Shown: positions 25,183 to 44,279, counted from the stretch's first letter. The stretch: DNA of 44,891 nucleotides from Eubacteriales bacterium (GCA_045586045.1 JAZMZQ010000088.1:1-44891); one strand, 5' to 3'. Notes: a model not told the origin generated them from the letters alone. Numbers and translations are program-made.

Positions 25183-25187
25183 TTTTT

Positions 25188-25327: not shown

Positions 25328-25345
25328 CTTATTATAAAAAAGCAA

Positions 25346-25430: not shown

Positions 25431-25445
25431 TTTTTTGGCAGTCTG

Positions 25446-26182: not shown

Positions 26183-26248
26183 CTGAGAATCCCTGCCTTT
26201 CGATGAAAGGATACCATAGTTTCTTTGGATAAGCAAGATTAAATGCAA

Positions 26249-28258: not shown

Positions 28259-28259
28259 T

Positions 28260-29462
28260 TTAGTTCTCCATTTCAAACATCCGAAAAACAGGCGGGTTTT
28301 TCCCGTCCGGAATCGGCATTTTATAAGATGCGCAAAGGAATTCTCCATCGAAAGAAAGGCGATAGGTCAACTGCCGCCCGCAAGGATCCTGGAGGGTTCT
28401 TCCCTTATAGGTCAGCCTGCCGTCTGCTTCGATTTTTGCAATTCCCAAGCCTTGGCAATCCAAATTAAAGAGCAAATGATCTCTTGCCACGCAAAGGAAC
28501 GATGGGGCAGGATCTCCTGCGATGACGCCGATGAATTTCGGCTTATCGGCATCGGGAAGGGGGAGATGGTAATGCTCCTCATTGAGCCGATCGTGAGGGC
28601 CGTAGACGATTCCTCTTTGATCAAAGCGGCTCCAGTCCACGCTCTTATATTGCTCTCGAAAAAGATGGTTGCCGGGGGAGACCCCGCCATAAACAAAGCT
28701 TCCCTTTGCCGCAAGACCGAAAACCTTATTTTTTTCAACCGATTGGGCATCCTTCATATGGGGGATCGCTGCGGGGCTCAGCTCGCAGCAGGGGCAGACG
28801 GTATTCTCTTCCAAATCATAGGTATAGGTGGTGATACAATAGCGATAGGAGGCGAAGGCGATATTGATTTTCCCCGCCTCTTTTTCAAAGACTGTGCTGT
28901 TTTGAAATTCTCTTGTGCGGGTTCTGCGGGGCTTTTCAATCTCGATATGCCGATATAGGCAGGTGAGGATCTGATCATTCTCGGTGAGCTTATAGATATA
29001 AAAACCATGGAAGTGGAGAGAGACGATTAAAAGATCCTTATACCGCGTAATATTGGTAACCTTATTTTCAAAATCCAATTCCCGAACAGGCTCAAGGGTT
29101 TCTTTATCGAGGATCGAAATTCTGCCCACAACGACGCCATCCGCCATATTGGTAACTCCGCCGCTTGAATCCCGCAGGGAGATGGCAAGATATTGCCCAA
29201 GATCCACCATGGCGGTGGCATGAGCGCAACCTTTGCGGATAAAATCCGCCTTGCTTTCTTTGGTGATATCGGATTTTTTCAAAAGCTTTGGATTTTTAGG
29301 GTCGCAGATATCATATTTGCAAAGGATGGTGCCGCCCATCAAATAGAGGATGCTGCCCTCTTTCAAGGAAAAGTTTGTTGCAATTTTCCGGTTTCCGTTG
29401 AATTCTTCAAAGATGCCTTCCTCATAGCAGGGAGAAAGCTCTAAATAGGGCTTAAAAATCAT
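28260..29462 (-). CDS. Hypothetical 400-aa protein (possibly beta-propeller-like)
   Basis: Clean ORF with GGAGGA upstream of ATG 29462, in an operon with the GH78-like gene. No motif recognised. Confidence 0.5.
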   Translation of the reverse strand: MIFKPYLELSPCYEEGIFEEFNGNRKIATNFSLKEGSILYLMGGTILCKYDICDPKNPKLLKKSDITKESKADFIRKGCAHATAMVDLGQYLAISLRDSSGGVTNMADGVVVGRISILDKETLEPVRELDFENKVTNITRYKDLLIVSLHFHGFYIYKLTENDQILTCLYRHIEIEKPRRTRTREFQNSTVFEKEAGKINIAFASYRYCITTYTYDLEENTVCPCCELSPAAIPHMKDAQSVEKNKVFGLAAKGSFVYGGVSPGNHLFREQYKSVDWSRFDQRGIVYGPHDRLNEEHYHLPLPDADKPKFIGVIAGDPAPSFLCVARDHLLFNLDCQGLGIAKIEADGRLTYKGRTLQDPCGRQLTYRLSFDGEFLCASYKMPIPDGKNPPVFRMFEMEN

Positions 29463-29529
29463 TTTTTATCCTCCGTTTATAAATTGAGTATATTATAACA
29501 AAAAAGGGTAAAGATGGCAAGACCGGGAG

Positions 29530-30516
29530 TCATTTGAATGTAACGGCTCCTTTGATAAAGTTATCTCTATGAGATTCCATATCGAAATTTCCCTGATCAA
29601 ATTCTTCCGCTGAATAGATATGATTGGTAACGCCGGTGAATTTCCACTGGCCGCTTGATAAAAGCTTTAAGGCTCGTTCTACCAAAGTTGCTTCATAGTC
29701 TATTCTTCTTTCGTGGCAGTTAAACATTTTAGCGGCTTTCATATTGAGAAGCTTAAAATCAAGGGTTCGGGCATAATCATTATGATAGCCGGCGATGCCC
29801 AATGTGCCATGAGCGCAGACCATTTCTCCCGCTAATTGAAGGGCATCCTCTGTCCCGGCAAATTCCACAACCGTTTGAAATCCTAAGCCGAATATGTCGG
29901 TAGTATGCCCGTCTCTTTTAAGATCCGGCTTTTTCCAGTTGCTCCAATTCAATTTGTAATTTTCGGGCAATGTTTCGGGGGTATAAATCTCTGTGGCACC
30001 AAATCTTTTTGCATTTTCCAAGGCAATGGGGCGTTTATCAACTGCCACAATTTCTGCATAGCCTCTTGCTTTTAATAAAGAGATCAGACCAAGGCCCATA
30101 TAGCCGCAACCTACCACGGCGATCCGATCGCCGATTTTTCCGGTGTCGATTCTCTCTGCCACGCTCATGATGCAGGCAAGGGGTTCACCGATTGCATCTT
30201 CGGATCGAAGATTTTCAGGAACCGTGAAGGTTTTATGAGGTTCCATGACGATATATTCTTTATAGCCTCCTCCGCCTAAGCCCGTTACTCGGTCGCCGAT
30301 GGAAAAGCCGCTCACATTTTTTCCCAGCTTTTCAATCACGCCCACAGATTCATGACCGAAAGTATCCCCTTTTTTCGCAATAGACCAAGGATACCATTCG
30401 GAATGGCACATCCCTGTATAAATCACTTTGACTAAAAGTTGATCCTCATTGATCTTGGGTTTTTCCACCTCAATGATCTTACTTTTTTTGGGTCCTTCCA
30501 TGATAAGTTGTTTCAT
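29530..30516 (-). CDS. Zinc-dependent alcohol/polyol dehydrogenase (MDR family)
   Basis: GMCHSEWYPW zinc motif and VVGCGYMGLG Rossmann motif. ATG 30516 with AAGGAG 8 nt upstream (the ORF opens at 30555). Confidence 0.8.
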   Translation of the reverse strand: MKQLIMEGPKKSKIIEVEKPKINEDQLLVKVIYTGMCHSEWYPWSIAKKGDTFGHESVGVIEKLGKNVSGFSIGDRVTGLGGGGYKEYIVMEPHKTFTVPENLRSEDAIGEPLACIMSVAERIDTGKIGDRIAVVGCGYMGLGLISLLKARGYAEIVAVDKRPIALENAKRFGATEIYTPETLPENYKLNWSNWKKPDLKRDGHTTDIFGLGFQTVVEFAGTEDALQLAGEMVCAHGTLGIAGYHNDYARTLDFKLLNMKAAKMFNCHERRIDYEATLVERALKLLSSGQWKFTGVTNHIYSAEEFDQGNFDMESHRDNFIKGAVTFK

Positions 30517-30528
30517 ATTTTTTCTCCT

Positions 30529-30553
30529 TAGGGAGACAGGACTCGAACCTGCC
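30529..30553 (-). other. tRNA 3'-end-like remnant (T-arm plus 3' acceptor strand), not a complete tRNA
   Basis: Minus strand GGCAGGTTCGAGTCCTGTCTCCCTA: GCAGG / CCTGT stem around the canonical TTCGAGT loop. No matching D-arm, anticodon arm or 5' acceptor upstream. Confidence 0.5.
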
Positions 30554-30565
30554 ATCTTATAAATA

Positions 30566-30592
30566 GGGGACGGTTGATGAAAACACGTCCCC
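30566..30592 (-). terminator. Hairpin after the ROK kinase gene
   Basis: GGGGACG ... CGTCCCC with a 13-nt loop, followed by TATTTAT on the minus strand. Confidence 0.5.
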
Positions 30593-30597
30593 AGTAT

Positions 30598-31488
30598 TTA
30601 GTCTTTTATAAATGCTGCTCCATAGAGGGGCGAAAGATCTTTAAGAGCCGCTTTTTTGATGATGGGCAGAGTATCAGTCATATAGCAATGGCTTTTGATA
30701 TACACCATCAAAGGAGTCAGATAAAGCTCCTCTTGCTCGCTTAAGCCGCCGCTGAAGAGCAGGCAGTCGGGGGAGAGCAGATTGATGATGGAAACAAGGC
30801 CACGCCCCAGCATTTCAATGGCATCGGCGATTGCTTTTTGAGCAATCTCATTGCCGCTTTTGGCTTCATTGAAAAGATCGGCGGCGGTTTTACCATCGCC
30901 CAAAAGCTCTTTGGCGGTAATATCCAATCCACCGCCTGCGCAATATTTTTCCAAGCAGCCGCGCTTGCCGCAGCCGCAAGGTCTGCCCCCTTCTACCACA
31001 GGCAGATGGCCAAGCTCCCCTGCGCAGCCCAATGCGCCGCCATAGATCTTGCCATCCAAGACAATGCCGGTTCCGATGCCGGTGCCGAGGGTAACGCATA
31101 CCACCGCCTTTGCGCCGATGCCGCCGCCGCAAAGATATTCGCCCCAAGCGGCAGCTCTTGAATCCTGCACAAAGCAGACGGGGGTTTTCAGTTCCGCTTC
31201 CAGCTTTTCTGCAAGATCATTGGAGAGCAGGCTGATATTGGGCGCTTTTAAGATCTTCTTACCATCGGCGCTTACTGTGCCGGGAATGCCGATGCCCATA
31301 GAGAGAATCTCTTTGGAATCGATATGATTCTCTTGGCAAAGGGTTTCTACAACGCTCTTAATGTATGCGGGCAGATCGGTAATCTCCGCAATATAGCCCT
31401 TTTTGCTTGCAAGGAGTTTTTTTGTATCGGCTGAAAAGAGGCCGATGTTGATTTTGGTGCCGCCGATATCAATACCGATTTTGACCAT
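30598..31488 (-). CDS. ROK-family sugar kinase
   Basis: MVKIGIDIGGTKINIGLF ATP-binding start, GELGH, and CGCGKRGCLEKY zinc motif. The start overlaps the rpiB stop by 1 nt. Confidence 0.85.
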   Translation of the reverse strand: MVKIGIDIGGTKINIGLFSADTKKLLASKKGYIAEITDLPAYIKSVVETLCQENHIDSKEILSMGIGIPGTVSADGKKILKAPNISLLSNDLAEKLEAELKTPVCFVQDSRAAAWGEYLCGGGIGAKAVVCVTLGTGIGTGIVLDGKIYGGALGCAGELGHLPVVEGGRPCGCGKRGCLEKYCAGGGLDITAKELLGDGKTAADLFNEAKSGNEIAQKAIADAIEMLGRGLVSIINLLSPDCLLFSGGLSEQEELYLTPLMVYIKSHCYMTDTLPIIKKAALKDLSPLYGAAFIKD

Positions 31489-31934
31489 TAGAATTCTCCT
31501 TGCTCAATGGCGGTGATCATATCAATTCTGGTTTGATGGCGGCCGCCTTCATATTCCGTGTTGATAAATGCATCTACGATGGTCTCTGCTGTTGCTTGCC
31601 CTACCACTCTTGCGCCGAAGGCGATGATATTGGCATTATTATGCTGGCGGGTCAGCTTGGCAGAATAGCTTTCGGAGCAAACGGCCGCGCGGATGCCTTT
31701 TACCTTATTGGCAGCAAGGGAGATGCCGATGCCGGTGCCGCAGATTAAGATGCCACGCTCACATTCTCCGCTTGCCACTGCATCTGCCACCTTTTTTCCA
31801 TAGATGGGATAGTCGCACCGCTCTTCAGAGTCGGTGCCGAAATTGATGATTTCATGACCTTGCTCTTCAAGGTATTTGGTAATATGATTTTTCATTTCGA
31901 CCGCAGTATGGTCGTTGCCGATTGCAATTTTCAT
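31488..31934 (-). CDS. rpiB: Ribose-5-phosphate isomerase B / LacAB-family sugar-phosphate isomerase
   Basis: MKIAIGNDHTAVEMK..., ILICGTGIGISLAANKVKGIRAA, SRQHNNANI-type block. 148 aa. Confidence 0.85.
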   Translation of the reverse strand: MKIAIGNDHTAVEMKNHITKYLEEQGHEIINFGTDSEERCDYPIYGKKVADAVASGECERGILICGTGIGISLAANKVKGIRAAVCSESYSAKLTRQHNNANIIAFGARVVGQATAETIVDAFINTEYEGGRHQTRIDMITAIEQGEF

Positions 31935-31945
31935 GGTCTTTCTCC

Positions 31946-32935
31946 TTATTTAATGATATAGGGCTCCATATCGTCGGGGGCTTCAAAATCTACCATGGCC
32001 TTCATATATTGGCCGTATTTGGTTTCAAGCTCTGCTTGAGCCTGATCGAATTTTGCAAAAGGATATACCTTGGTGGGCACATTCTTGAAATTCCAGCTGC
32101 CGTCCTTGAGCATCCGAATGGCATTCTCGCAAGCGGTTCTGCAGATATCGGTCTCTCTGGGATGGGTGGAGAGGCAATCAATGGCCTTCACATTCAGCTG
32201 CTGAATATCCACCAGCCGTTTGCCGCCGGTATGATAAGCGCCGATGGCAAGCTGGCCGCACATTCTGGTCATCCGAATGGCAAGATCCAAGGATTCATTG
32301 GTCTCGCCCCATTCCATAACAGTATAGAAGCCAAGGCCTTCGGTTTTGAATTTGAGGCCCTTGCCGGGAACATCAAAATATTCTTCGGGCAGCTCATCGG
32401 GGGTATAAACCTCATCGGCGCCAAACCGCTTTGCATCTTCAAGGCATTCCTTGCGGATATCAACGGCAACTACATAAGCCCCTCTTGCCTTCAAAAGGGA
32501 GATGGCGCCGCAACCCATATAGCCGCAACCCACTACTGCAACCCGATCTCCGATCACAGGGATCTTCACCTTGCTCACCGCGCTATAGAGGCAGGCGATT
32601 GGCTCTAAAATGGCATCGGAATCGCTGAGCTTTTCGGGCAAGGTAAAGACATCCTCGGCATCGGCAATTACATATTCACTTTTTCCGGAATAAAGGCCGC
32701 TTACCCGATCACCAACCTTCACATTGGTAACCTCATCGCCAACAGCGATAACGGTTCCGATGGGCTCATGGCCAAATTGCTTGCCCTCTCTGGCGGTAGA
32801 CCAATCATAATGCTCGCTCATGCAAACCCCGCAGAAACGATTTTTGATCAAAACCTCGTTGCTCTTTTGAATTTCGGGGATGGGCGCATCGATGATCTCG
32901 GCGCATTTAGGACCTTTCATAACCAGTGATTTCAT
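31946..32935 (-). CDS. Zinc-dependent alcohol/polyol dehydrogenase (MDR family), second copy
   Basis: GVCMSEHYDW and VVGCGYMGCG motifs. ATG 32935 lies 6 nt after GGAGGTG (the track start at 32944 is GTG). Confidence 0.8.
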   Translation of the reverse strand: MKSLVMKGPKCAEIIDAPIPEIQKSNEVLIKNRFCGVCMSEHYDWSTAREGKQFGHEPIGTVIAVGDEVTNVKVGDRVSGLYSGKSEYVIADAEDVFTLPEKLSDSDAILEPIACLYSAVSKVKIPVIGDRVAVVGCGYMGCGAISLLKARGAYVVAVDIRKECLEDAKRFGADEVYTPDELPEEYFDVPGKGLKFKTEGLGFYTVMEWGETNESLDLAIRMTRMCGQLAIGAYHTGGKRLVDIQQLNVKAIDCLSTHPRETDICRTACENAIRMLKDGSWNFKNVPTKVYPFAKFDQAQAELETKYGQYMKAMVDFEAPDDMEPYIIK

Positions 32936-33022
32936 GGGAAACACCTCCGTTTTTAAATTTTTCTTTACTCTTATGCTAACACCGAGAAGAAAAAAACAAA
33001 ATGCAAAAAAGCCATTTATTTT

Positions 33023-33051
33023 TTGACAAAACCGACTTTTTATGGTAATAT
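33023..33051 (+). promoter_or_regulatory. Sigma-A-type promoter of the AraC gene
   Basis: TTGACA (33023-33028), 17-nt spacer, TGgTAATAT extended -10 (33043-33051). It covers the track's ATG at 33042. Confidence 0.6.
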
Positions 33052-33083
33052 CAAATTGCAGATATCAGGAAAGGGGCGCCTTT

Positions 33084-33815
33084 ATGAATACCCGCTATTG
33101 CAATCAATCCAAAACCTATCGATCCTTCGATGCCCATCACCATCCCGATTCATGGGAAATTTCCTTGCAGATTCAAGGGAAAATGGTGGTTACTATCGGA
33201 GAAAACCAATATCATATCGGGGAAAATGATATTCGCGTGGTTCCGCCGGGACTTTCTCATTCGGGGTGCTCCGAGGAGGATTGCGCCGATATCTTTTTGG
33301 TGGTAAAAAATTTGGATTTTTCCGATGTTATTATCACCCATGATTATGATGGAAATATCCGAAAACTGATGGAGATTTTAAATAAGGTTACCACCGAGCG
33401 GGAAAAGAATTACGAGCTGATCGCCGATACGCTGACCGATGCCATTAGCGAGTATATCAAGCGGTATCAGGGGGGCGGATATAAATATGAATTTACCGTC
33501 GATTTTAAGAATCGGCTCTTTGAGAATATCGGCAATCCCGATTTTGAGATTGCAAAGGAAATTAAAAAAATCGGCTTTAATGCCGATTATTTCAGAAAAT
33601 GCTTTCGGACAGATTTCAAAAAATCGCCTCTTGAATATCTTATGAGCCTGCGGATGAATCTTGCAAAAAAGCTTTTGCGGCAGATTCCCTTTCAGGGGAT
33701 AGAAAGCATCGCAAATCAATGCGGATTTCGGGATATCTACTATTTCTCCAAAGCCTTCAAAAAACAGATCGGTTGCTCCCCCAGCCACTACCGCAGGGAG
33801 CATACCGCTCTTTAA
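33084..33815 (+). CDS. AraC-family regulator (cupin-type sensor + HTH)
   Basis: The N-terminal half has a cupin-like pattern (WEISLQIQGKMVVTIG...VVPPGLSH). C-terminus IESIANQCGFRDIYYFSKAFKKQIGCSPSHYR. AGGAAAGGGG lies upstream of ATG 33084. Confidence 0.8.
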   Translation: MNTRYCNQSKTYRSFDAHHHPDSWEISLQIQGKMVVTIGENQYHIGENDIRVVPPGLSHSGCSEEDCADIFLVVKNLDFSDVIITHDYDGNIRKLMEILNKVTTEREKNYELIADTLTDAISEYIKRYQGGGYKYEFTVDFKNRLFENIGNPDFEIAKEIKKIGFNADYFRKCFRTDFKKSPLEYLMSLRMNLAKKLLRQIPFQGIESIANQCGFRDIYYFSKAFKKQIGCSPSHYRREHTAL

Positions 33816-33816
33816 A

Positions 33817-33857
33817 AATAGCAAAAAGCAGGCCGGAAAGACCTGCTTTTTGCTATT
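33817..33857. terminator. Bidirectional terminator shared by the AraC gene and spoIVB remnant D
   Basis: AATAGCAAAAAGCAGG ccggaaaga CCTGCTTTTTGCTATT. The right arm touches the remnant's stop codon. Confidence 0.8.
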
Positions 33858-33978
33858 CACTTGCGTAAGAGCATATTTTCAATAAAGATGCCTATTTTCG
33901 GGGTTCCTGCGCCGATGAGCTTGCCGTTTTGCAAAATGGGGCTGCCGCTCACGGGTGTGTCCATATAGGGCCAACAAA
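33857..33978 (-). pseudogene. spoIVB 3'-end remnant D (most decayed) plus shared junction
   Basis: Minus strand reads [30 protein letters not shown]. 24 nt shorter than the live gene end. Positions 33952-33977 match the junction next to remnant C (24 of 29 by hand). Confidence 0.75.
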
Positions 33979-34010
33979 TCAATCATAGAATCGTCCTCTG
34001 ATTGTTTTTG

Positions 34011-35567
34011 TCATATCCGGAAGGGGGAAAAATTGCCGAAGGGGATCTCCCCGGTGGCAGCACGGACAAATGCCTTCACACTGGGCGACAGCATGGAGTA
34101 GGCATTGACATAGGTGTACGCGCGCTCAAAATACTGATTGCCGAAGTAGGGCGAGCCAAAGGAGACCACTACGGTCTTCTCCACCGCTGTTTGCAGGGAT
34201 TTTGCGATCTTTATTGCTTCCACTCCTTGAAAGTCTAAAAATCCTATGGGACGATAGGAACGGGAAAATAGGGCATACAGCACCAGATCGCTTGCTTCCA
34301 TTTCTTCCGGTGTAGGAACGGCATTTTTATAGGTTACAGCAAAGCCCTTGCTTTCCAGTTCTCTACAAAGAAGCTCCGCTTCCTGCAGCGCAGGCTCGTA
34401 ATGGGTTACGGGGATCACCAGAACATTTTTCGTTTTTTCGGGGCTTAAGGGGAACTGATGGTTTTGATCTTTGATGAGGGTGACGGATTTCTCTGCGGTC
34501 TCCTGTTGCACGGAATCGACAAACATGGTATCTTCTTTTGTCAGCATCACGGCATGATTATCTTTTTTGAACAGGCCCATCTTTTCCTTAACATTGAGGA
34601 TGCGGTTGACTGCGTCGTCCAGCCGCTCCATGGAGATGTAGCCGTTTTCCACAGCCTTCACCATATCGTCTACATAGTGTTCTTCGGGCCACAGCATCAT
34701 ATCGCAGCCCGCCTTGAAGCTTTCGATCTGGGATTGGCGCTTGGTCTTGTACCAGCCAAGGAAGCCGCCCATGGCCAGCGCATCGGTAACGACGATGCCT
34801 TTGAAGCCCATTTCCTTTTTCAGCAGATTCTCGATCAACTCGCCGGAAAGGGTGGCGGGCAGAGGCAGACCGTTGCTGTGAAGCTGACGCTGGTAGGCGG
34901 GCAGGGTGATATGACCGGGCATGATGCTCATTACACCACTGTCAATCAGATCCTGAAACACCTTTCCGTGAAGCTGCTTCCACTCATGCATGGACAGGGT
35001 ATTGGCGGTGGTAACGATGTGCTGATCCCGATAGTCCACACCGTCGCCGGGGAAGTGCTTGGCGCAAGCAGCAAGCCCGTTTTCCTGCATGCCCTTGATC
35101 ACGGCGCTCAGCATTTTGGAGGCAAGCTGAGGATCGTCGGTGAGGGAGCGTACATTGATTAGTGGGTTGCGGGGGTTGGTCAGCAGATCGCATACGGGCG
35201 AGAGACTCCAGTTTGCACCGATGGACCGTGCCTCCATGGCAGTTGCCTTGCCATAATCGTAGGCAAGGCGGGGATCGTTGGTGGCACCAAGTCCGGAAAG
35301 ATAGGGCAGGGGCGTTAGCCCCTTGACCATGCTGCCGCAGCCGTTTTCAAAGTCAGAGGTAATCAACAAGGGGATATCCGCGTTGTCAATATATCGGGAA
35401 ATGGTTTCTCGGGCTTTTTCAAGGGGCGTGTCCTCCGCCTCTGTAATGATCTCGCCGCCAATGAACAGAGCGCCCACTTTGTCCTCCACAAAAACATCTT
35501 TTTTGTGGCGCAGCACGACGGTCTGCAGGATCTTCTCCCGCAGAGAAAGATCTGAAAGTTTCATCAT
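34011..35567 (-). CDS. Glycoside hydrolase family 3 (NagZ-like beta-N-acetylhexosaminidase type)
   Basis: KHFPGDG and GFKGIVVTDALAMGG (nucleophile Asp context), with a GH3 two-domain length. AGGAGG lies upstream. Confidence 0.8.
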   Translation of the reverse strand: MMKLSDLSLREKILQTVVLRHKKDVFVEDKVGALFIGGEIITEAEDTPLEKARETISRYIDNADIPLLITSDFENGCGSMVKGLTPLPYLSGLGATNDPRLAYDYGKATAMEARSIGANWSLSPVCDLLTNPRNPLINVRSLTDDPQLASKMLSAVIKGMQENGLAACAKHFPGDGVDYRDQHIVTTANTLSMHEWKQLHGKVFQDLIDSGVMSIMPGHITLPAYQRQLHSNGLPLPATLSGELIENLLKKEMGFKGIVVTDALAMGGFLGWYKTKRQSQIESFKAGCDMMLWPEEHYVDDMVKAVENGYISMERLDDAVNRILNVKEKMGLFKKDNHAVMLTKEDTMFVDSVQQETAEKSVTLIKDQNHQFPLSPEKTKNVLVIPVTHYEPALQEAELLCRELESKGFAVTYKNAVPTPEEMEASDLVLYALFSRSYRPIGFLDFQGVEAIKIAKSLQTAVEKTVVVSFGSPYFGNQYFERAYTYVNAYSMLSPSVKAFVRAATGEIPFGNFSPFRI

Positions 35568-35578
35568 TTACCTCCTGA

Positions 35579-37621
35579 TTATTTGAAATGGATTAAGGCG
35601 TAAGAACAGTCGTTCGGCAGGCTGATCTGCCATGTGCTGCCTGCCTGTGTAACGGTGGCAGCTTCCTGATTGAAGGGGGCGTATACCGTGGGGATCTTGT
35701 TCGTTTGAATATGGATATTGCCATCCACGCCGATAGGCGTAATGTCCGTCAGCAAATTTACGCGGCTGCGGTGAGTGCGGATAGAATCCAGCTTGTGGTT
35801 GATATCCACATCATAGTCTTCCGCCAGCAGTTGTACGATGATGGCATCACCGTCGCACCGCATGGTGGTAAGATAGCCATTTGCCTTGGTGATAGTAACG
35901 GGCATGGGGCGCACCATGGAATGCACGAGATCCAGCAGCTGATCGCGGTTGGTATCACCCAGCCGATGGGGGTGGTAGAAAACGCCCTTTTCCGGCTGCT
36001 GCCACACATCCGGATCATCGGAATTATTGATTCGGATGGTTTTGCACCAGTCCGGTCGCTTCACATGAATTCCATCGGGAACGGTGGTAAAAAAATCTGC
36101 GCTCGGAATATCAAGTCGGTTGGGAAGCTTCCAGCTGTTTATACAGCCGGAGACCGCAGTGGGACCGTATATAATCACTTTGCCGCCTGCGGCAAGGTAG
36201 CGCGCCATGGCGGCATGCTCTTCGCCGGTCATCTTTGCCACACCGGCAAGCAGGATCACCGGATAGGTAACCGCATTTTCCGGAAAGGCGAACACAGTAT
36301 GCGGGCACAGACCATTGGCAAACAGCAGATGCAGCGTGTCGCCATAGTCCTTGTAATAGCCGTTGTTCAAGCTGCCGTAGAGGGTGTGGTTGCGGGTTTC
36401 GTAGGAGAAATACACTCCTAACTGCCCCACACTTTCACCTCGGAATAACTCCGGATGGGCAGCTTCAAAGCCGAAAGCAGTACCTACGATATCCTCCTCA
36501 CCGGGCAAGGTGTTGAGAATGTGCCAGGGCAGACCCAGTCGTGTTTTCAGTGTGCCAATCCACGCGTCTGCATCCAGCACCTTGGCGGTTGCCCAGACAT
36601 GGTTGGCCGCTGCTGTACTGTGGGCAAAGCCGGTGCAGAAGGCTCTTACGCCCTTTTCGCGGGCGGCTGCCTGATGGTGGGAGGAGTTGATCAGACGATG
36701 GGGAATGGGAACATTTACGGTTTTGGAGTCGTGTTTATAGGGCGGTGTATTACCGCTGAGCTCCATGTTCACATAGTTCCAACCGCGCAGGAAGTTGCGG
36801 GCATCGGTGGCGGACATGACTGCTCCGGCAGAGGCGGAGGCAGCACCGCAGCCGGTGAGGATAAAATTCTCCGGCAGCACTTTGCGCAGATTCTCGTAAA
36901 AGCTGCCCCCTGCATCGAAGCGCATATCAATCCACGCGTTCCATGCAGGATTCTCCCAATTGCCCCAAAAAGAGGTGTCCTCCACCGAGGGAAGGTCTAT
37001 TCCCGCTCTGCGCTGCAGCTCGGCACGGCAGTGGCTGCAGCCGCAGGCATTGTGATGCATATAGTACAATGCATCATCGGCACTGAGACCGTCAATACCG
37101 GTCTCGCTGATGAGATATTTCACATAATCCTGATAGGCTTCCTGAAAGTCCGGATTCCGAGGGCAGAAGCCTTCGGCGGTGTATTGGGGAAACCACAGGG
37201 GCTTTCCGGTCTTTACATCCATCATCCGCCAGTCGTTGAGCAGTTTACCTTTGTAGCGCCAGTCGGCAGCCGCCTCAAATGTGGGGCTGAAGGGCAGATG
37301 AGGACCGCTATCCAGCATCACATGGCGCATTTCCTGACGGGTGCTGTAGCGGTGTACCAAATTTACGGAATGGTGGTCGAACAGCTTGATGCCGTATTTG
37401 TGCAGTTCCTCTGCCACCGTGGCGATATAGTCGTGGAGCAAGGGAAACACCGGCATAAAATCCCACCGAAAGTGGGTGCCGAAGAGCATGGCCGCGGATA
37501 CATGGGCATTGGCAAATCCCTCCGCCCGCGCCTTGATCCTGTCCATATTGTCGGAATCCGGCCATTGCAGGTCGTTCCAGTGGATCCACCATGAAGCAAT
37601 GCGGTGGTGTTCGTTTTTCAT
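35579..37621 (-). CDS. Uncharacterised 680-aa GHL-type protein in the murQ operon
   Basis: ATG 37621 with AAGGAG 7 nt upstream, 1 nt after the murQ stop (the ORF opens at 37729 inside murQ). Shares a Cys-containing block with 13263-15152. Confidence 0.6.
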   Translation of the reverse strand: MKNEHHRIASWWIHWNDLQWPDSDNMDRIKARAEGFANAHVSAAMLFGTHFRWDFMPVFPLLHDYIATVAEELHKYGIKLFDHHSVNLVHRYSTRQEMRHVMLDSGPHLPFSPTFEAAADWRYKGKLLNDWRMMDVKTGKPLWFPQYTAEGFCPRNPDFQEAYQDYVKYLISETGIDGLSADDALYYMHHNACGCSHCRAELQRRAGIDLPSVEDTSFWGNWENPAWNAWIDMRFDAGGSFYENLRKVLPENFILTGCGAASASAGAVMSATDARNFLRGWNYVNMELSGNTPPYKHDSKTVNVPIPHRLINSSHHQAAAREKGVRAFCTGFAHSTAAANHVWATAKVLDADAWIGTLKTRLGLPWHILNTLPGEEDIVGTAFGFEAAHPELFRGESVGQLGVYFSYETRNHTLYGSLNNGYYKDYGDTLHLLFANGLCPHTVFAFPENAVTYPVILLAGVAKMTGEEHAAMARYLAAGGKVIIYGPTAVSGCINSWKLPNRLDIPSADFFTTVPDGIHVKRPDWCKTIRINNSDDPDVWQQPEKGVFYHPHRLGDTNRDQLLDLVHSMVRPMPVTITKANGYLTTMRCDGDAIIVQLLAEDYDVDINHKLDSIRTHRSRVNLLTDITPIGVDGNIHIQTNKIPTVYAPFNQEAATVTQAGSTWQISLPNDCSYALIHFK

Positions 37622-37622
37622 A

Positions 37623-38444
37623 TCAAATCTCCTTCTTCCAAAGCTGCAGCGCATCGCGGATGATCCAGTTGCTCTTTTCCAGCAAATCGGTGGCAGCATC
37701 CTCATCATAACCGGTGATCTGGCTGACAATGCGGATCACCCGACCCCGAAGCTTGATGTTGGAGGGCTTGAGGTTGATCATCATGTTTTCATAAACTTTT
37801 CCTGTTTTTACCATAGCGCATGTAGTAAGCGTATTAAGGACGATTTTTTGCGCAGTACCGGCCTTTAAGCGGGTTGAGCCTGTCAGAACCTCTGCACCCG
37901 TGTCTGTAAAAATCTGAATATCCGCTGCATTCAGTATTTTTGTATCGGGGTTACAGCTTACCCCTACGGTTACAGCACCGATGGATTTCGCAGTTTCTAT
38001 TGCACCTACCACATATGCCGCATTCCCTGCCGCAGATATTCCAACCACAACGTCCACAGATCTAACACCGTGTTCGGCGATTGCTTCACAGCCCTTTTCA
38101 TATTTGTCTTCTTCGTTTTCTCCGGCGAGGAACATTCTTTCGTTTCCGCCTGCGATGATACCTTGAACCTGATCATAGGGTACGCCAAAAGTCGGCGGGC
38201 ACTCCGCAGCATCAAGAACACCGAGTCTGCCTGATGTTCCTGCGCCGACATAGAAAAGACGTCCGCCATTTTCAAAGGCGGCGGCAATCGCGTCAACCGC
38301 CTGAGCAATTGCAGAGGCAGCGTCCTCAACGGCTTTTACTGCATCGTAATTCGCCGTGATAACAAGTTTTGCCATTTCCTCTGAACTCATTTTATCCATA
38401 CGCATACTGGCGGGATTTCTCGTTTCCGTTTTTGATAGACTCAT
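37623..38444 (-). CDS. murQ: N-acetylmuramic acid 6-phosphate etherase
   Basis: TETRNPASMRMDKMSSEEM..., GRLFYVGAGTSGRLGVLDAAECPPTFG SIS-domain core, and C-terminal KLKAGTAQK-type block. The start overlaps the upstream stop by 1 nt. Confidence 0.85.
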   Translation of the reverse strand: MSLSKTETRNPASMRMDKMSSEEMAKLVITANYDAVKAVEDAASAIAQAVDAIAAAFENGGRLFYVGAGTSGRLGVLDAAECPPTFGVPYDQVQGIIAGGNERMFLAGENEEDKYEKGCEAIAEHGVRSVDVVVGISAAGNAAYVVGAIETAKSIGAVTVGVSCNPDTKILNAADIQIFTDTGAEVLTGSTRLKAGTAQKIVLNTLTTCAMVKTGKVYENMMINLKPSNIKLRGRVIRIVSQITGYDEDAATDLLEKSNWIIRDALQLWKKEI

Positions 38445-39598
38445 TACTCTATTCCTCCGTAAGTTTTTTTGAAATTCCCGTAAAATTCATCAGGTATATC
38501 ACATGCCGTTATGGAACATGCCTTCTTACAGGCTCCGTATATCGGCGGCAGTGTATTTACAAGTAATTTTACATCGCTGTACTGTCCGATGAATTCAGTC
38601 ATGATTTCTCCGTAGTGTTCAAAGAGACCTCCGCTCGCAATAGCGACAGGGCTTGCATTGCAAAGTTTAACACCCGCATTTAAGAGCTCTGCCAATGCTT
38701 TTGTATTTCTCAAAATGATCTGTACGGCTTTTTTATCTCCTTGTTTGAAAGCATCAAAAGCAATTGATGCAAAACTTGCTATATAGGGCTTCCCTTCACT
38801 ATAAATCGTATTGATATGCTCCCACACGGTGTCAACATTCAGTTTCCGGCACAGCATTCTGCTCATCAACGAACGGTTCTCCCTCATATCTTCTTCGTGC
38901 AACGCTTCCCGAATCACGTCCCTGCCAAAATCATAAGCGCTGCCGGCACCATCAAGCAGATATCCCCATCCGCCAAGCCTTTTGTATGAATCACCGTCTT
39001 TGACGAATACAACCGATCCTGTCCCGCTGATGACAGCCATATCGGCTCTTTCATCAAGTGCAAAAAGATTAAAGGAATCATTTTTTATTTGTATATCAAT
39101 CTGTTGATATCGTCTTTTTAATTCAGCAGATAACCGCTTTGCATAATCTCCCGTAGAGATTCCCGCAATTCCACAGAATACGCTTCTGATAGAATGAAAT
39201 TCCGTAAGAATATCGCCAATCCCATCGACAAGTATGGAAAGCATTGCAGAATACCCGATATCGTTCGGGTTACATCCGCTTTTTACAAGGCGTTTTAGTA
39301 CATATCCTTCTGAGGAGACAAGTACAAACTCCGTTTTTGTTCCCCCTCCGTCAATTCCCAAAAACAGATCATCGCTTTGCTTGCGAAGAAGGTCATCCAC
39401 CAATACACCAAAGTATGCGGCTATATTGATCAGATTTTCAAGTTCGGGCGGAGCCACCCCGCGCTCCCAATTGGATACTGCCTGAAAGCTTACTCCTAAA
39501 ATATCGGCAAATTCATTTTGCGTTAATCCTTTTTGTTTGCGTAATTCCCTAATGCTTGTCCCAAGCGTTTCTATATTAAGCAAGATCCGTTCCTCCAT
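38444..39598 (-). CDS. XRE HTH domain fused to a BadF/BadG/BcrA/BcrD-type ATPase (GlcNAc/MurNAc kinase-like)
   Basis: N-terminus IRELRKQKGLTQNEFADILGVSFQAVSNWERG. Then FLGIDGGGTKTEFVLV, ISGTGSV and GGWGYLLDGAGSAY kinase blocks. Confidence 0.75.
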   Translation of the reverse strand: MEERILLNIETLGTSIRELRKQKGLTQNEFADILGVSFQAVSNWERGVAPPELENLINIAAYFGVLVDDLLRKQSDDLFLGIDGGGTKTEFVLVSSEGYVLKRLVKSGCNPNDIGYSAMLSILVDGIGDILTEFHSIRSVFCGIAGISTGDYAKRLSAELKRRYQQIDIQIKNDSFNLFALDERADMAVISGTGSVVFVKDGDSYKRLGGWGYLLDGAGSAYDFGRDVIREALHEEDMRENRSLMSRMLCRKLNVDTVWEHINTIYSEGKPYIASFASIAFDAFKQGDKKAVQIILRNTKALAELLNAGVKLCNASPVAIASGGLFEHYGEIMTEFIGQYSDVKLLVNTLPPIYGACKKACSITACDIPDEFYGNFKKTYGGIE

Positions 39599-39690
39599 AT
39601 ATATGATTTATAATTGAATTATAACAATTGCAAATAGAAATATCAAACAACTGCTCGTTGATTTTTGCGTCAAACTAAACGAATAATAGA

Positions 39691-39733
39691 AAAAGCAATA
39701 TTCTTCCCCGTAGCAGGAAGAATATTGCTTTTT
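39691..39733 (-). terminator. Terminator behind spoIVB remnant C
   Basis: AAAGCAATATTCTTCC ccgtagca GGAAGAATATTGCTTT, T-run on both strands. Confidence 0.75.
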
Positions 39734-39752
39734 AATGAAGATATGGTATATC

Positions 39753-39897
39753 TTATGAAGCCGAGAGCATGTTTTCGATAAAGATGCCGTAGCCGCGGGT
39801 GGGGTCGGAGATCAAGACATGGGTTACTGCGCCGACGATTTTGCCATCCTGCAAAATCGGGCTGCCGCTCACGAGTGTGTCAATATAGGACCAACAT
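39753..39897 (-). pseudogene. spoIVB 3'-end remnant C plus shared junction
   Basis: 39753-39871 is about 93% identical by hand to 42964-43082 and reads [38 protein letters not shown]. 39872-39897 is the junction shared with remnant D. Confidence 0.85.
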
Positions 39898-39936
39898 ATT
39901 TTTATATCATTCATTTTCAATTTATCCTTTAAACGC

Positions 39937-39969
39937 AAAGAAATCGCACCAATTAGGCGCGATTTCTTT
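39937..39969 (-). terminator. Hairpin after B2
   Basis: AAAGAAATCGCACC aatta GGCGCGATTTCTTT (with G-U pairs), 30 nt after the stop at 40000. Confidence 0.55.
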
Positions 39970-39999
39970 ATTTTATATGGAATTATATGAAATTGTGGC

Positions 40000-41010
40000 T
40001 TACTTAGGTCTGTATGCCGGGCAGGAGTAACATGCAAAACCACGATTAGAACATTTACAAGCACAGGATCTGGCTCTAATTCCATTAATGCGTTCTCTTT
40101 CTCTACGGCTCTCTTTTTCAGCTTCTGCAGCGTCTTTTGCCATTTGTTGCTGTTGTTGCTCCATTTGCCTATTGTGACGCCTCATTTCTTCCATTTGCTG
40201 TTCCATAGCCTCTTGGCGAAGCCGCTCTTCTTCTCGCCGTTGTTCCTCTTCTCGTTCTTTGCGGTCGTCTTCAATGGCTAAATTAAGCGCATCTTTCAAA
40301 TTGTCGGCTCTACCGCTTTGCAAAGAAGAAAGTATATTTTTCGTCAAATAATGATATTCACTTGATAAAATGTCAAGGCCGGTTATTTGTTGCTCAATTC
40401 CCACAAGTTGCTGCTTTGCGTTATTTATATTTGCTTGGTATTCTTCTCTTGCAGCGACAAAATCATTGTGACAAGAATTCTGGAGTTGAATAAATTTTGC
40501 CATGCTGTCTTTTGCTTGGGCTTTTTCTTTTTCAAATCGACTGAGGTTTTGTCTAAAACTGTCCATCGTCTGATTGAACTTTTCAACAGATTCATCATAG
40601 ATTTTCTTTTTCTCAAGATAAATGCGTTTTAAGCCTTTACATAAGTATAGCAAAACCGCTGTGCCGACAATTCCAACAGCACCAAGACTTGATAAAAAAG
40701 AAGCTTTTGTTATCAAGTAAAGAAGAATCGATATTATTCCACCGCCGGCGAACAGAATAAGTATTTTTTTCAATTTCTCATATTTAAGTTCATTTGGCAA
40801 ATAAATGTCTTTATCGATCGGAAAAAGCGGCATGATGGAGTAGACAGAGGGCACCATTGGACCATCGCCTCTAACACGACGTATTTCATTGAGTCTTTTC
40901 TTTGCGTCATCCAATTCGCCGTATTGAATGCGATATTCCAAATCACTTTTTTTATCCAACAGCTCTTCAAGTTTTTTTAATTTATTAATCACTTCTTTAT
41001 TATTTAACAT
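40000..41010 (-). CDS. Unknown 2-TM coiled-coil protein with an E/R/Q-rich helix and a Cys-rich tail ('B2')
   Basis: TM hairpin [18 protein letters not shown] / [16 protein letters not shown]. Blocks [14 protein letters not shown] and [12 protein letters not shown]; tail [18 protein letters not shown]. The start overlaps the A2 end by 11 nt. Confidence 0.75.
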
Positions 41011-41593
41011 CTTTCCGTTCTCTCCAGTTTTGTAAAATAAAAAGGTATGCTATTTCTGCTTGAATTTCGCGCAAAGATTCATCGATATCGTATGCTGTGG
41101 TATTAATAATTTCGCCGCCTAAGTTTTCGATGAATTTTTTGCCCAACTCTTCTGTTTTGACTTTGTATTTTGCGTCTCCCAAAGATGGATCATTATCAAA
41201 AAGGTGCTCATCATATATCCAAGAGTCATTATCATAGGGATTAGCAATGCCATGCAAAATTGATAGTAGTATACAGTACACACCCTCGGTATTATCCGCT
41301 TCTTGAACCTTGCTGATATACGCAATAAAAGGGTTTTTGTTGGCATCAATAAGGGCAGGATATGACGAATACTCCGTATTTGATGTGCTGATACTGTTTG
41401 ATAGCAAAAATGCCATTTTAAACAAGAATGTTTTTATGTTGTTTTGCGAAGTTCGCCTTAGGTTTTTTTCGGTGATGCGTAAAAGATACGAATAAAGGAA
41501 AACCGAACGTTCTTCAAGATTTTTGCATTCATCGAACGCTTGTTTTCCGGATGACGATAAAAACCATGCGGCATCATTAGTAATAAGTTCCAT
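41000..41593 (-). CDS. Unknown soluble protein ('A2')
   Basis: ATG 41593 with AAGGAG 8 nt upstream (the ORF opens at 41692). Blocks LEERSVFLYSYL, YPALIDANKNPFIAYI and YCILLSILHGIANP....WIYD match A1. Confidence 0.75.
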   Translation of the reverse strand: MELITNDAAWFLSSSGKQAFDECKNLEERSVFLYSYLLRITEKNLRRTSQNNIKTFLFKMAFLLSNSISTSNTEYSSYPALIDANKNPFIAYISKVQEADNTEGVYCILLSILHGIANPYDNDSWIYDEHLFDNDPSLGDAKYKVKTEELGKKFIENLGGEIINTTAYDIDESLREIQAEIAYLFILQNWRERKDVK

Positions 41594-41708
41594 TTGGTAT
41601 TTCTCCTTTAAATTTTTTGCAGATTTCTTATCTTTAACACAATTATAGGGCAAAAATATGTTAATGTCAAGAAAAATGCAAATCTTTAGCATATTTTGGA
41701 GGATAATT

Positions 41709-41951
41709 GTGAAGATCTATGATTATAAAGGAAAGAAAAATATCTGCGGTGAGCGGGTACACGAAGCGCGGTGTCGGTTGCGGTTAACCCAAAGCAATCT
41801 GGCGGCGCAGTTGCAGGTAGCAGGAATCATTATTGAGCGGGACAGTGTTTCCCGCATTGAAATCGGGACACGCTTTGTGGCAGATTACGAAATCCGCGCA
41901 TTGTCCGAAATCTTAAAGGTCCCGGTGGATTGGTTGCTTGGGATCGAATAA
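41709..41951 (+). CDS. Small XRE-family HTH regulator
   Basis: GTG 41709 lies 7 nt after GGAGG. GERVHEARCRLRLTQSNLAAQLQVAGIIIERDSVSRIEIGTRFVADYEIRALSEIL is a typical Cro/CI-type HTH. Confidence 0.75.
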   Translation: MKIYDYKGKKNICGERVHEARCRLRLTQSNLAAQLQVAGIIIERDSVSRIEIGTRFVADYEIRALSEILKVPVDWLLGIE

Positions 41952-41954
41952 ATG

Positions 41955-41981
41955 AAAAAGCAGACCCAAGGGTCTGCTTTT
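41955..41981. terminator. Bidirectional terminator between the XRE gene and spoIVB remnant B
   Basis: AAAAGCAGACC caag GGTCTGCTTTT. Confidence 0.75.
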
Positions 41982-41982
41982 A

Positions 41983-42135
41983 CTATACTGCGCTGGCCAG
42001 CATATTTTCGATGAAGATGCCGTAGCCGGCGGTGGGGTCGGAGACCAAGACATGGGTTACTGCGCCGACGATTTTGCCGTTTTGCAAAATCGGGCTGCCG
42101 CTCATGCCCTGCACAATGCCGCCGGTAGCGGTACA
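41983..42135 (-). pseudogene. spoIVB 3'-end remnant B
   Basis: About 88% identical by hand to 42961-43110. Reads [48 protein letters not shown], closed upstream by an in-frame TGA. Confidence 0.85.
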
Positions 42136-42140
42136 TCAAA

Positions 42141-42728
42141 TTATTTTAGCTCTTTGCGAAAAAGATCAAGTAAATAATCGTTTACTCCGTTTGCTGCCTG
42201 AATGGTGGCGGTCATTAGGTCAGATGGGTCGATGTTGGAAAATTCAAATTGATAGCCGTTATAATCAATTAGTTTTGAAACAAAAATACGTTGGGTGCGG
42301 CCGTTTCCCTCCCGAAAGGGATGCAATAGATTGGTGGTGCAGTAAAAATCCACCAATTCATCAATAAATTTCGGTTTGGAAAGACCCTTGAAATAATTCA
42401 TCTTTTTAAGGCGGTCAAAGCAAGCGTAGCATAAGTTTTCTAATTGATCGGCAGGGCAAAAGGCGGTTCCTTTTTTGGAAATATCCACTGTGCGGAGCTC
42501 GCCGGCCCAACCATAAAGATCTTCAAAAAGAAATCGGTGGATGGATTTGTAATAATCAAAATCCAAAGGCGGTTTGGCAGGCTGACTTTCCAATAGGGTT
42601 GTCTTGGCGTGGGTGATGGTGGCTTCAAGGGATGCCAACTGCTCTTCATTTCGCACATCAAACTTATTAATAAGGCAGGTGGTTCCCTCATAACAGTTTG
42701 CAGAAATCGGATCGATACTGTAGCCCAT
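42141..42728 (-). CDS. Fic/Fido-domain toxin (class I, FicT/VbhT-like)
   Basis: Canonical HPFREGNGRTQR motif. 195 aa. ATG overlaps the antitoxin stop (TAATG). Confidence 0.85.
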   Translation of the reverse strand: MGYSIDPISANCYEGTTCLINKFDVRNEEQLASLEATITHAKTTLLESQPAKPPLDFDYYKSIHRFLFEDLYGWAGELRTVDISKKGTAFCPADQLENLCYACFDRLKKMNYFKGLSKPKFIDELVDFYCTTNLLHPFREGNGRTQRIFVSKLIDYNGYQFEFSNIDPSDLMTATIQAANGVNDYLLDLFRKELK

Positions 42729-42901
42729 TATGCGGTAACACCTGCCTTTTCTTTTGCCATGGTGAGATATTCTTCCATGGTGATCTCTTTATTTAAGAGC
42801 CTGCGGCACCATTCTTTGGTTTGTTCATCCACCGAAAAACCCTCCATCTCTAAAGAGAAGGTGGCATTTTTGATGCAACGTTCAATTTGCTTTTCGCTCA
42901 T
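42728..42901 (-). CDS. VbhA/FicA-type antitoxin
   Basis: 57 aa. SLEMEG matches the inhibitory [S/T]xxxE[G/N] helix motif. ATG 42901 preferred over GTG 42910. Confidence 0.75.
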   Translation of the reverse strand: MSEKQIERCIKNATFSLEMEGFSVDEQTKEWCRRLLNKEITMEEYLTMAKEKAGVTA

Positions 42902-42960
42902 GCAAAACACCTGCCTTTATGTAGAGTATACCACACGTATAGGTGTGGTGCAACTCTTTT

Positions 42961-44094
42961 TTATTCTGCTGCGGAGAGCATATTCTCAATAAAAATGCCG
43001 TAGCCGCGGGTGGGGTCGCTGATCAAGACGTGGGTTACCGCGCCGACGATTTTGCCATCCTGCAAAATCGGGCTGCCGCTCATGCCCTGCACAATGCCGC
43101 CCGTTGCGGCCAGAAGATCGGGGTCGGTAACCTCGATGGAGAGATTTTTATATTCCGATAAGTTATTATTGACTTTGGTTATACGAATTGTATAGGATTT
43201 CGGGGTATCTCCCTCTAAGGTGCAGAGGATTTGGGCCTCTCCCTCTTGGATTTCGTCCTTGAGCGCGATGGGGTAGGCTACCCCTTCAAAAGAGCGTTTG
43301 GCTTTGCCGAAAAGGCCTGCACCGCAGTTTTTCTCTACCGAGGCCAAGGTCTCTTTTTCCAAGGCGCCCAAAAGCTCGCCGGGGGCATCCTTTTCTCCCG
43401 CTTTGATGCCGGTAATGCGTGCATCTACCATGGTGCCGCTATGGACCGGCATGGTCAGGCCGGTATCTACGTCGGAGATGGAATGGCCAAGGCCCGCAAG
43501 GGAGCCGGTTTCGGGGTCGTAATAGGTGAGGGTGCCGAGGCCGGCGGTGCTATCCCGCACCCAAAGGCCGATGGAATAATTTCCGTCCCGCAGGAAGGGA
43601 GTAACCCAAACAGTTTGTTCTCGTTGGTTGCGGAGAATCTCTGCCCGCTGCTTTTTGCCGCGGCAGCGCTGCACCTGCTCTCTGAGCTCTTGATTGGAGC
43701 GAACCTCAACACCGTTATAGGAGAGGATAATATCGCCCACCTGAATACCGGCATCCACGCCGGCGCTTTCCTTTTCTGCATCGACTACAATGACACCCTT
43801 GGTATAAAGCTTGATCCCAAAAGGGGTCCCCAGTGCCACCAATTGCTTTTCTGCAATTTCCCGAATGGTGGCGTCTTTAATAGGAAGCAGGCCGAAAAGC
43901 TTGATCTTGGCGGTATAGGAATCCTCCAAAGCATCTTTTTGATCGGCCTCAAAGGTATAAAAAACAGAGGATTCCGGCAGTTGGTCGGGATAACAATGAT
44001 AGGTAGAGGGAATCTTTTGGATTCCATATCCTAAAAGAGCTGCCATCAGCCCGATCCCGACGATCAGACGAATGGCTTTGAACCATTTTTTCAT
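42961..44094 (-). CDS. spoIVB: SpoIVB peptidase (S55, PDZ + serine protease)
   Basis: TM start MKKWFKAIRLIVGIGLMAALLG, PDZ region (AGIQVGDIILSYNGVEV), LGHSISD and [24 protein letters not shown] catalytic Ser block. ATG 44094; the track's 44328 start runs through a repeat region. Confidence 0.9.
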   Translation of the reverse strand: MKKWFKAIRLIVGIGLMAALLGYGIQKIPSTYHCYPDQLPESSVFYTFEADQKDALEDSYTAKIKLFGLLPIKDATIREIAEKQLVALGTPFGIKLYTKGVIVVDAEKESAGVDAGIQVGDIILSYNGVEVRSNQELREQVQRCRGKKQRAEILRNQREQTVWVTPFLRDGNYSIGLWVRDSTAGLGTLTYYDPETGSLAGLGHSISDVDTGLTMPVHSGTMVDARITGIKAGEKDAPGELLGALEKETLASVEKNCGAGLFGKAKRSFEGVAYPIALKDEIQEGEAQILCTLEGDTPKSYTIRITKVNNNLSEYKNLSIEVTDPDLLAATGGIVQGMSGSPILQDGKIVGAVTHVLISDPTRGYGIFIENMLSAAE

Positions 44095-44184: not shown

Positions 44185-44279
44185 CAACACAAATGATTTG
44201 TGTTGAAAAGAAGAGGCTTGGGAGTACAAATGATTTGTGTTGAAAAGAAAAGGCTTGGGAATACAAATGATTTGTGTTG
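44185..44279. repeat. 37-bp tandem repeat (about 2.5 units), each unit carrying an ACAAAT-g-ATTTGT palindrome, upstream of spoIVB
   Basis: ACAAATGATTTGTGTTG starts at 44189, 44226 and 44263. The first copy extends to the 21-bp palindrome CAACACAAATGATTTGTGTTG. Confidence 0.9.

Follow-up and report, generated by a model that had tools for sequence, protein, structure and literature searches.

A putative accretion array of small, recombinase-less cassettes at the catalytic-serine codon of spoIVB: an analogue of SCC composite islands associated with triple large serine recombinases

[quoted passage not shown] Their units are bounded by direct repeats of the site and stack in tandem as "composite islands", and many of the units, the pseudo-SCC elements, carry assorted accessory genes and no recombinase (PMC6243372; bioRxiv 10.1101/336396). 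[quoted passage not shown] By that analogy, and without membership in the SCC family, the region is best described as an SCC-like accretion of small cassettes at the catalytic-serine codon of spoIVB, lacking recombinases of their own and associated with triple LSRs. As in a composite island, three units and four copies of the gene end accompany an intact target gene, and units with and without LSR genes occupy one type of site with a shared consensus for the adjoining "arm"; one array (L148) has both, with an LSR-less unit behind a complete element. The two systems differ in target (rlmH/orfX versus the spoIVB catalytic-serine codon), in recombinases (ccrAB or ccrC versus three tandem LSRs) and in hosts (staphylococci versus gut Clostridia represented by metagenome-assembled genomes, MAGs). 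The spoIVB units are also far shorter, with a median of about 1.3 kb among the matches listed and often only one gene each, and every unit would bring about 120 nt of replacement coding sequence (40 codons and a stop), whereas the repeat at the SCC integration site is short.

Several other systems share part of this design. Some integrative and conjugative elements (ICEs) of Streptococcus have serine integrase genes as a triplet at one extremity (Ambroset et al. 2016, PMC4701971); they disrupt mutT, traG or hsdM and leave direct repeats of 2-8 bp, and that paper reports no arrays of recombinase-less cassettes for them. The spoIVB elements are like these ICEs in having three tandem LSR genes at an extremity, in the same orientation to the target, and in being site-specific, but the ICEs disrupt their target whereas spoIVB would be rebuilt by an end that the element carries. 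Cis-mobilizable elements (CIMEs) at the 3′ end of fda in Streptococcus thermophilus, like islands at tRNA genes, are integrase-less, bear att sites and stand in tandem with a complete element whose recombinase can move them, with repeats of the gene 3′ end between units; they involve tyrosine integrases and short core repeats, and usually measure tens of kb. Accretion of this type resembles the spoIVB array in its tandem, recombinase-less units separated by gene ends, and differs in recombinase and unit size. Integron arrays are similar in their small, mostly single-gene units, which have few promoters or are self-regulated, in their conserved end site and in proximal entry. They work through IntI, attI and a folded attC, whereas here attachment takes place within an essential sporulation gene, and the serine-type recombinases are not encoded beside the array; no tyrosine recombinase is encoded in or beside it, and its units end in an arm and a spoIVB fragment rather than in attC. 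Mobile elements in sporulation genes are familiar in Firmicutes (skin in sigK, SPbeta in spsM, gin in gerE and yin in yabG, some of them of LSR type), but those elements split the gene and are excised in the mother cell, whereas the spoIVB elements would leave their gene intact by means of a substitute end. The spoIVB end is apparently a widespread hotspot for accessory genes in spore-forming gut Clostridia and, as far as searched, a previously undescribed one: no paper in the literature covered, which is an incomplete sample and leaves room for an earlier description, links spoIVB with serine recombinases or with element integration, and the supplementary files examined from a large survey of LSR targets make no mention of SpoIVB.

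The live spoIVB gene occupies 42961..44094 on the minus strand and encodes a full-length product with PDZ and Peptidase_S55 domains (Pfam PF05580, E = 1.7e-79; SpoIVB peptidase, NCBIfam TIGR02860, 331.8 bits against a cutoff of 305). Its start was set at MKKWF, and a longer mechanical open reading frame (ORF) reaches 44328. A preliminary description, made from the window's sequence alone, had reported four copies of the 3′ end of this gene, one live and three displaced, and repeat finding and alignment place them where it did. A 22-nt core, TGAGCGGCAGCCCGATTTTGCA, is present at four positions in the window and no others, always on the minus strand (43061-43082, 42083-42104, 39850-39871 and 33930-33951), whereas chance would give none (100 shuffled versions contained 0 matches). 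Copy A, the current end of the gene (42961..43082, 40 codons and a stop), has a hairpin downstream at 42929-42950. Copy B (41983..42131, with its TG at 42103-42104) is an intact displaced end with a terminator, hairpin plus T-run, at 41956-41981; copy C (39753..39871, 39 codons, also recognised by PF05580) is likewise intact, with a terminator of the same make-up at 39690-39733; and copy D (33857..33951), with a hairpin terminator at about 33817-33847, is decayed by an in-frame deletion of eight codons. All four lie on the minus strand and are in frame with their own stop codons, so that the earlier account of separate stops and hairpins, and of a fourth copy 24 nt shorter and still in frame, stands. 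Its identities to the live end, estimated by hand at about 88% for B and 93% for C, were a few points too high: the computed values are 84% for A-B over 150 nt, 90% for A-C over 119 nt and 80% for A-D with the gap of about 24 nt left out. A mechanical ORF of 110 aa that ends in copy C (39753-40085) matches Pfam Peptidase_S55 over residues 72-107 (E = 1.4e-17); displaced ends of this kind are likely to be mis-annotated as small Peptidase_S55 protease genes. Upstream of spoIVB, at 44186-44279, lie three copies of a near-perfect palindrome, AACACAAATGATTTGTGTT, spaced at 37 nt and kept in the sister genome L001 at 8445-8544; they look like a triple operator for some regulator.

Repeats of this kind could in principle belong to a different repeat system or be an artefact. 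Near-identical repeats of about 120 nt at a gene 3′ end superficially resemble the variable and template repeats (VR/TR) of a diversity-generating retroelement (DGR), an array of small cassettes resembles a tyrosine-type integron, and a metagenome-assembled contig such as the window may be misassembled. A DGR was ruled out, since the window encodes no reverse transcriptase and the substitutions are spread over all bases rather than being adenine-specific. An integron would bring an IntI-type gene, attI or attC-like structures, of which there are none, and the linked recombinases are serine-type. As for misassembly, an assembler would not be led astray by copies that match at 80-90% and not exactly, and the repeat junctions are reproduced in the independent assemblies of three relatives (L001, L244 and L245). 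This group of explanations deserves next to no credence.

The evidence for a dedicated recombination site comes from the left side of the displaced ends. Copies C and D part from the live sequence at an identical base, within the ATG (Met) codon of the GMSGSP catalytic-serine motif (43081..43083, minus strand), where their homology to the live gene begins, and then have 25 nt in common that spoIVB lacks; a common junction had been claimed at the outset. These 25 nt form the arm, a putative attP-type (P) half-site. Arm C, TGTTGGTCCTATATTGACACACTCG (39872..39896, minus strand), abuts the TG, and arm D, TGTTGGCCCTATATGGACACACCCG (33952..33976, minus strand), aligns with it as a slightly diverged version. 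Set against the arm that adjoins the three-recombinase module of L085 and L092, arm C has 2 mismatches in 25 positions and arm D has 3. Arm C is also exactly the arm of L004, whose SpoIVB is only 64% identical to the window's; simple decay of old gene ends would leave no such identity in a distant genome, and a recombination site is indicated instead. In the sister genome L001 an arm of the arm D type lies at 12967-12991. The consensus is TGTTGTCC..TA.TGACA.CACTCG beside LSR genes and TGTTGkyCC..TA.TGACA.CAC.CG in arm-bearing genome loci, at a fixed spacing before the ATG of G-M-S-G-S-P. Copies C and D both show the order arm, TG, old gene end, and each, taken with its arm, has the make-up of an attR-type junction.

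Four other identities for the arm were considered and rejected. Several arm types have in-frame stops (TAA TGA) on inspection, which excludes coding sequence. The TTGACA of some arms comes without a usable -10 box and leaves no room for a ribosome-binding site before GTG, which excludes a promoter. The arm bears no likeness to the Firmicute dif consensus (by informal comparison), as a Xer/dif-like site would under the model of integrative mobile elements exploiting Xer (IMEX), and no window unit has the inverted arm copy at its opposite end that transposon terminal inverted repeats would require.

The same arm sits beside recombinase genes elsewhere. A degenerate pattern of arm plus core, in which a non-A base was required before TG so that live genes are excluded, matched seven viral contigs, nearly always at the contig end. 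Immediately upstream of the arm these contigs have three tandem ORFs of 520-590 aa with the Pfam domains Resolvase, Recombinase and Zn_ribbon_recom, that is, LSRs; all three domains were detected in L085, L088 and L090 at E = 1e-18 to 1e-24. Two of the loci, L085 and L092, have a 100% identical third recombinase (LSR3) and an identical arm, and they part company right after ...ACTCG/TG, in spoIVB sequence (TGAGCGG versus TGTCAGG). Eight further groups of identical arms diverge in the same way immediately after ...CG/TG, for nine groups in all. Given that the same arm and LSR are followed by different sequence past the TG, the arm belongs to the element, as its P half-site, and the sequence beyond the TG to the host, which places strand exchange on or beside the TG in the Met codon. 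As far as comparison of sequences can, these alignments show the site, the position of the crossover and the association with LSR triplets, and the encoded proteins are predicted to recombine attP with attB. In the window the TG at 43081-43082 would be the crossover dinucleotide, within a site that is attB-like and formally attL. Such an att site is unusual in design: the crossover falls one codon before the catalytic serine, and the element would supply that serine and the C-terminus of the protease.

Homologous recombination alone, whether by Campbell-type integration or by unequal crossing-over of DNA bearing a spoIVB end, would dispense with a dedicated recombinase. It would account for the exchange of sequence among the copies (the live end is a mosaic, and copy B is best matched by the live end of L001) and for the gene sequence that stands in place of an arm to the left of copy B and of a remnant in L003. 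It would not, however, produce a base-exact breakpoint shared by distant genomes, place a conserved 25-nt arm foreign to spoIVB at that breakpoint, or tie the arm to three recombinase genes. Breakpoints along the repeat are not scattered but fall at the same position throughout the arm-bearing sample, and as a full explanation homologous recombination is very unlikely.

Upstream of the LSR genes, the complete elements encode a DUF3854 protein, a PIN-type toxin, an actin-like partition protein, an XRE regulator and a sigma-70 region-4 protein, together with a MazF-type toxin and an ImmA-type regulator that were both called by eye. They look more like integrative plasmid-like or mobilisable elements than like tailed phages, despite being entered as viral in IMG/VR. 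Among the viral contigs, those bearing an attB-type site are for the most part ordinary host flanks with spoIVB and spo0A, and those with an LSR triplet and arm have a displaced spoIVB fragment only. In GenBank MT836038 the integrated right end is followed by ORFs that resemble, by eye, host cobalamin-biosynthesis genes. No complete element lies within 10 kb of spoIVB in the 80 species-level loci around SpoIVB homologues that made up the genome sample.

The junction recurs well beyond the window. In 9 of these 80 species-level genomes the spoIVB 3′ end is repeated downstream of its own gene, and a profile search found arm-bearing remnants in 10 genome loci. Of the 64 species-level genomes in which 2 kb or more follow the gene, 10 (about 16%) hold one unit or more. 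Wherever an arm is present, homology to the live gene opens at the same codon, even where the SpoIVB proteins are only about 40% identical. The arm-plus-core pattern also matched at least 120 metagenome contigs, and in all at least 160 arm-bearing sites were found in genomes and metagenomes of unrelated gut Clostridia. In at least 44 of them an LSR module ends just before the arm; in at least 43 an LSR-less unit is bounded on the left by another spoIVB copy; at least 17 are unbounded with no LSR within 1.7 kb; and at least 56 have too little upstream sequence to classify. Among the matches listed, bounded LSR-less units measure 628-11,283 nt from junction to junction (median about 1.3 kb), similar arrays occur in L050, L130, L141, L230 and others, and displaced ends are intact and in frame in 88% of LSR-adjacent cases and in at least 59% of LSR-less units, which fits recent displacement or periodic re-use. 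Cargo at the hotspot includes sugar-utilisation operons and toxin-antitoxin, restriction, VanX/VanZ-like and acetyltransferase genes, and the accessory genes of the LSR-less units are diverse. A YhcG-type PDDEXK nuclease is a recurrent cargo family among them. In five loci (L149, L164, L218, L222 and L136) the left-hand partner genes vary, and the arm-proximal gene is in several of them one of about 362-374 aa with 88-95% identity; a shared arm-proximal gene with varied partners indicates that the units have a modular make-up or arose through fusion of smaller units.

The 9 kb that follow the catalytic-serine codon of spoIVB are therefore likely to be an accretion array produced by site-specific integration through LSRs. 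The preliminary description had proposed repeated site-specific insertion into the last 40 or so codons of spoIVB by elements that supply surrogate ends, and the LSR-linked arm, the crossover at TG, the at least 160 sites and the differing cargo of close relatives uphold it. In the proposed mechanism an incoming circle would carry an attP consisting of arm, TG and a spoIVB-like end with its stop and terminator, and recombination would yield, in order, the spoIVB 5′ part, TG, new end, cargo, arm, TG and old end. The gene would be rebuilt with an element-borne catalytic serine and C-terminus (40 codons), and the old end would be pushed outward behind the cargo, beside the arm, so that the protease would stay intact despite the insertion. 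Under this model copy A would itself have been brought in by an inserted unit. Because the right half-sites of attP and attB would both be spoIVB ends, the live gene would stay attB-like and the arm-bearing remnants attP-like, and since product sites would thus resemble substrates, further units could be added in series. A recombinase acting in trans could excise any gene-to-arm block as a circle able to re-integrate; the three window units would then be non-autonomous cassettes, the counterpart of ccr-less pseudo-SCC elements, and recombination and gene conversion among the repeated ends would reshuffle units further. We have high confidence that LSRs made this accretion array and moderate confidence that its units can currently be mobilised in trans, mobilisation being what we infer from the structures. 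The docking site appears to be renewed after each insertion, which, if true, would be of interest for serial genome engineering with serine integrases.

Were the units ever independent cassettes? They could instead be fossils, that is, full-size LSR elements after internal deletions. In favour of this, the window is free of recombinase genes, copy D and the remnant in L001 have decayed or been truncated, deletions and replacements that are not site-specific also shape the island, and in a few complete elements among the matches listed 140-600 nt separate LSR3 from the arm, which leaves room for cargo. In most complete elements, though, the LSR3 stop lies only 8-30 nt from the arm, and yet 42 of the 43 bounded LSR-less units among the matches listed have a clean arm, with nothing LSR-like left at E < 1e-3. 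Units without LSR genes equal complete ends in number (at least 43 versus at least 44) and are mostly of single-gene size. Their arms follow the same consensus as LSR-adjacent arms, some being identical, while the sequence just upstream is not conserved. Random deletion should often have taken the arm as well, but internal copies without an arm number 2 in about 100 sites among the matches listed (copy B and the one in L003). Because LSR-less units are this numerous, free of LSR genes and conserved in their arms, a distinct non-autonomous class is favoured, and the fossil explanation appears unlikely, though less so than the other alternatives.

A bolder extension of LSR-made accretion is possible and is offered tentatively: the spoIVB end might be a serine-recombinase counterpart of the integron, at which small and mostly single-gene cassettes are taken up, stacked and released by trans-acting triple LSRs. 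Each cassette may then combine its cargo with a 25-nt attP half-site and a 40-codon surrogate end; under such a system insertions could follow one another without limit, and excision would need no dedicated directionality step. As for the recombinases, the three paralogues might match three types of half-site: the left half in the gene, the arm and the shared right half.

Close relatives show that the array varies in cargo and that its repeated ends exchange sequence. The flanks of L001 are 94-96% identical to the window at the nucleotide level, and between them lies a single, different unit (a GtaA-like hydrolase and AraC) that ends in the same arm type; unit 3 of the window (described below) is missing from L001, L244 and L245 alike. 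Window positions 39853-41053, comprising a portion of unit 2, arm C and the initial 18 nt of copy C, are 99.7% identical in L244, which beyond them enters different DNA whose nearest window match is 83% identical, a pattern that suggests a recent transfer or rearrangement at the arm. The live ends of window and L001 (42961-43082 and 9643-9764) have about 17 differences over about 100 nt between flanks that are 94-99% identical, and in the middle of the live end the window is C-like and L001 B-like. Copy B matches the live end of L001 at 92% identity, against 84% for that of its own window. Together, the mosaic live ends and the match of copy B to L001 indicate that the repeated ends exchange sequence by gene conversion, and on sequence grounds this points to swapping of the catalytic C-terminus of SpoIVB between alleles. 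The suggestion that decay grows with distance from the gene does not survive, since copy C is nearer to A than copy B is, copy B is closest to another genome's live end, and the copies are gene-conversion mosaics.

A number of observations weigh against LSR-driven accretion, or at least against its sufficiency. First, no arm adjoins copy B, and upstream of its TG 27 nt of spoIVB sequence remain, which makes it attB-like rather than attR-like; as it stands it does not fit an arm-type insertion, and either unit 1 arrived by another reaction or the junction was overwritten later. Second, unit 2 of L245 is followed by neither an arm nor a displaced end, and window positions 26.2-33.8 kb are missing in L001 with no spoIVB repeat at that boundary, so clearly other rearrangements also act on the island. 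Third, inspection found no dyad symmetry between the arm and the spoIVB half-site, which is unusual for single-LSR att sites. Fourth, protein-domain searches detected no recombinase at 33.8-44.9 kb, as had been noted before, nor one of any kind elsewhere in the window, and site-specific activity there would need a recombinase element elsewhere in the genome. Finally, neither a free attP nor the attL of a complete element was found in the viral contigs searched, and no circular cassettes were found among small two-arm contigs, whose two copies are 80-91% identical and which are thus true arrays.

The second internal copy without an arm, at L003 10420-10631, is a displaced end in which 45 or more codons from another spoIVB allele survive; on its right an extended arm's upstream part, GGACGGTTCTGTGATTGATTTG, cuts it off, and this structure suggests nested or overlapping insertions. 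The block that L001 lacks (26171-33857, 7.7 kb) is devoted to sugar metabolism and encodes AraC, two proteins of the zinc-dependent alcohol dehydrogenase (zinc-ADH) type, RpiB, a ROK kinase, a 400-aa protein without known function and a rhamnosidase-like protein. At least window positions 30871-33828 of it are found in L245, and the truncated remnant in L001 suggests that the block was deleted there. The L245 contig begins one base past the crossover T, and the contigs of L081 and L082 end shortly after spoIVB; spoIVB arrays are probably under-assembled and under-counted in short-read MAGs.

Domain searches agree with the cargo first described for the three intervals of the window. Unit 1 (42136..42960, minus strand) has a 60-aa antitoxin-like ORF at 42728-42910 and a Fic/VbhT-like toxin at 42141-42728, the latter identified by Pfam Fic, NCBIfam VbhT/Fic and PADLOC PDC-S04. 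The first 235 nt past the spoIVB stop, within this unit, are 98.7% identical in L001, where the Fic gene is missing. Unit 2 (39897..41982, genes on both strands) consists of AT-rich DNA (35-37% GC) with an XRE regulator at 41658-41951 on the plus strand and two minus-strand genes for proteins without known function, of 230 aa (41000-41692) and 336 aa (40000-41010). Unit 3 (33977..39752, minus strand) is a four-gene set: an HTH-BadF/ROK-type kinase (38444-39598), a MurQ-like SIS protein (37623-38444), a 716-aa protein without known function (35579-37729) and, at 34011-35567, a GH3 enzyme. Exact-protein look-ups for SpoIVB, the Fic protein, the GH3 enzyme, the 230-aa protein and the kinase returned no record.

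Two further features lie farther from spoIVB. An intergenic repeat of about 95 nt, beginning GAGTAGGATTTCTTTTCCCTTGCCGATTTATAGAATCGGCAGAATTC..., occurs three times (25098-25189, 25345-25436 and 16586-16674) at 89-97% identity; L001 has one copy only at the corresponding place, and the repeat has no match in Rfam, which matched nothing anywhere in the window. On the minus strand, window positions 16728-23213 form a single ORF of 2161 aa.

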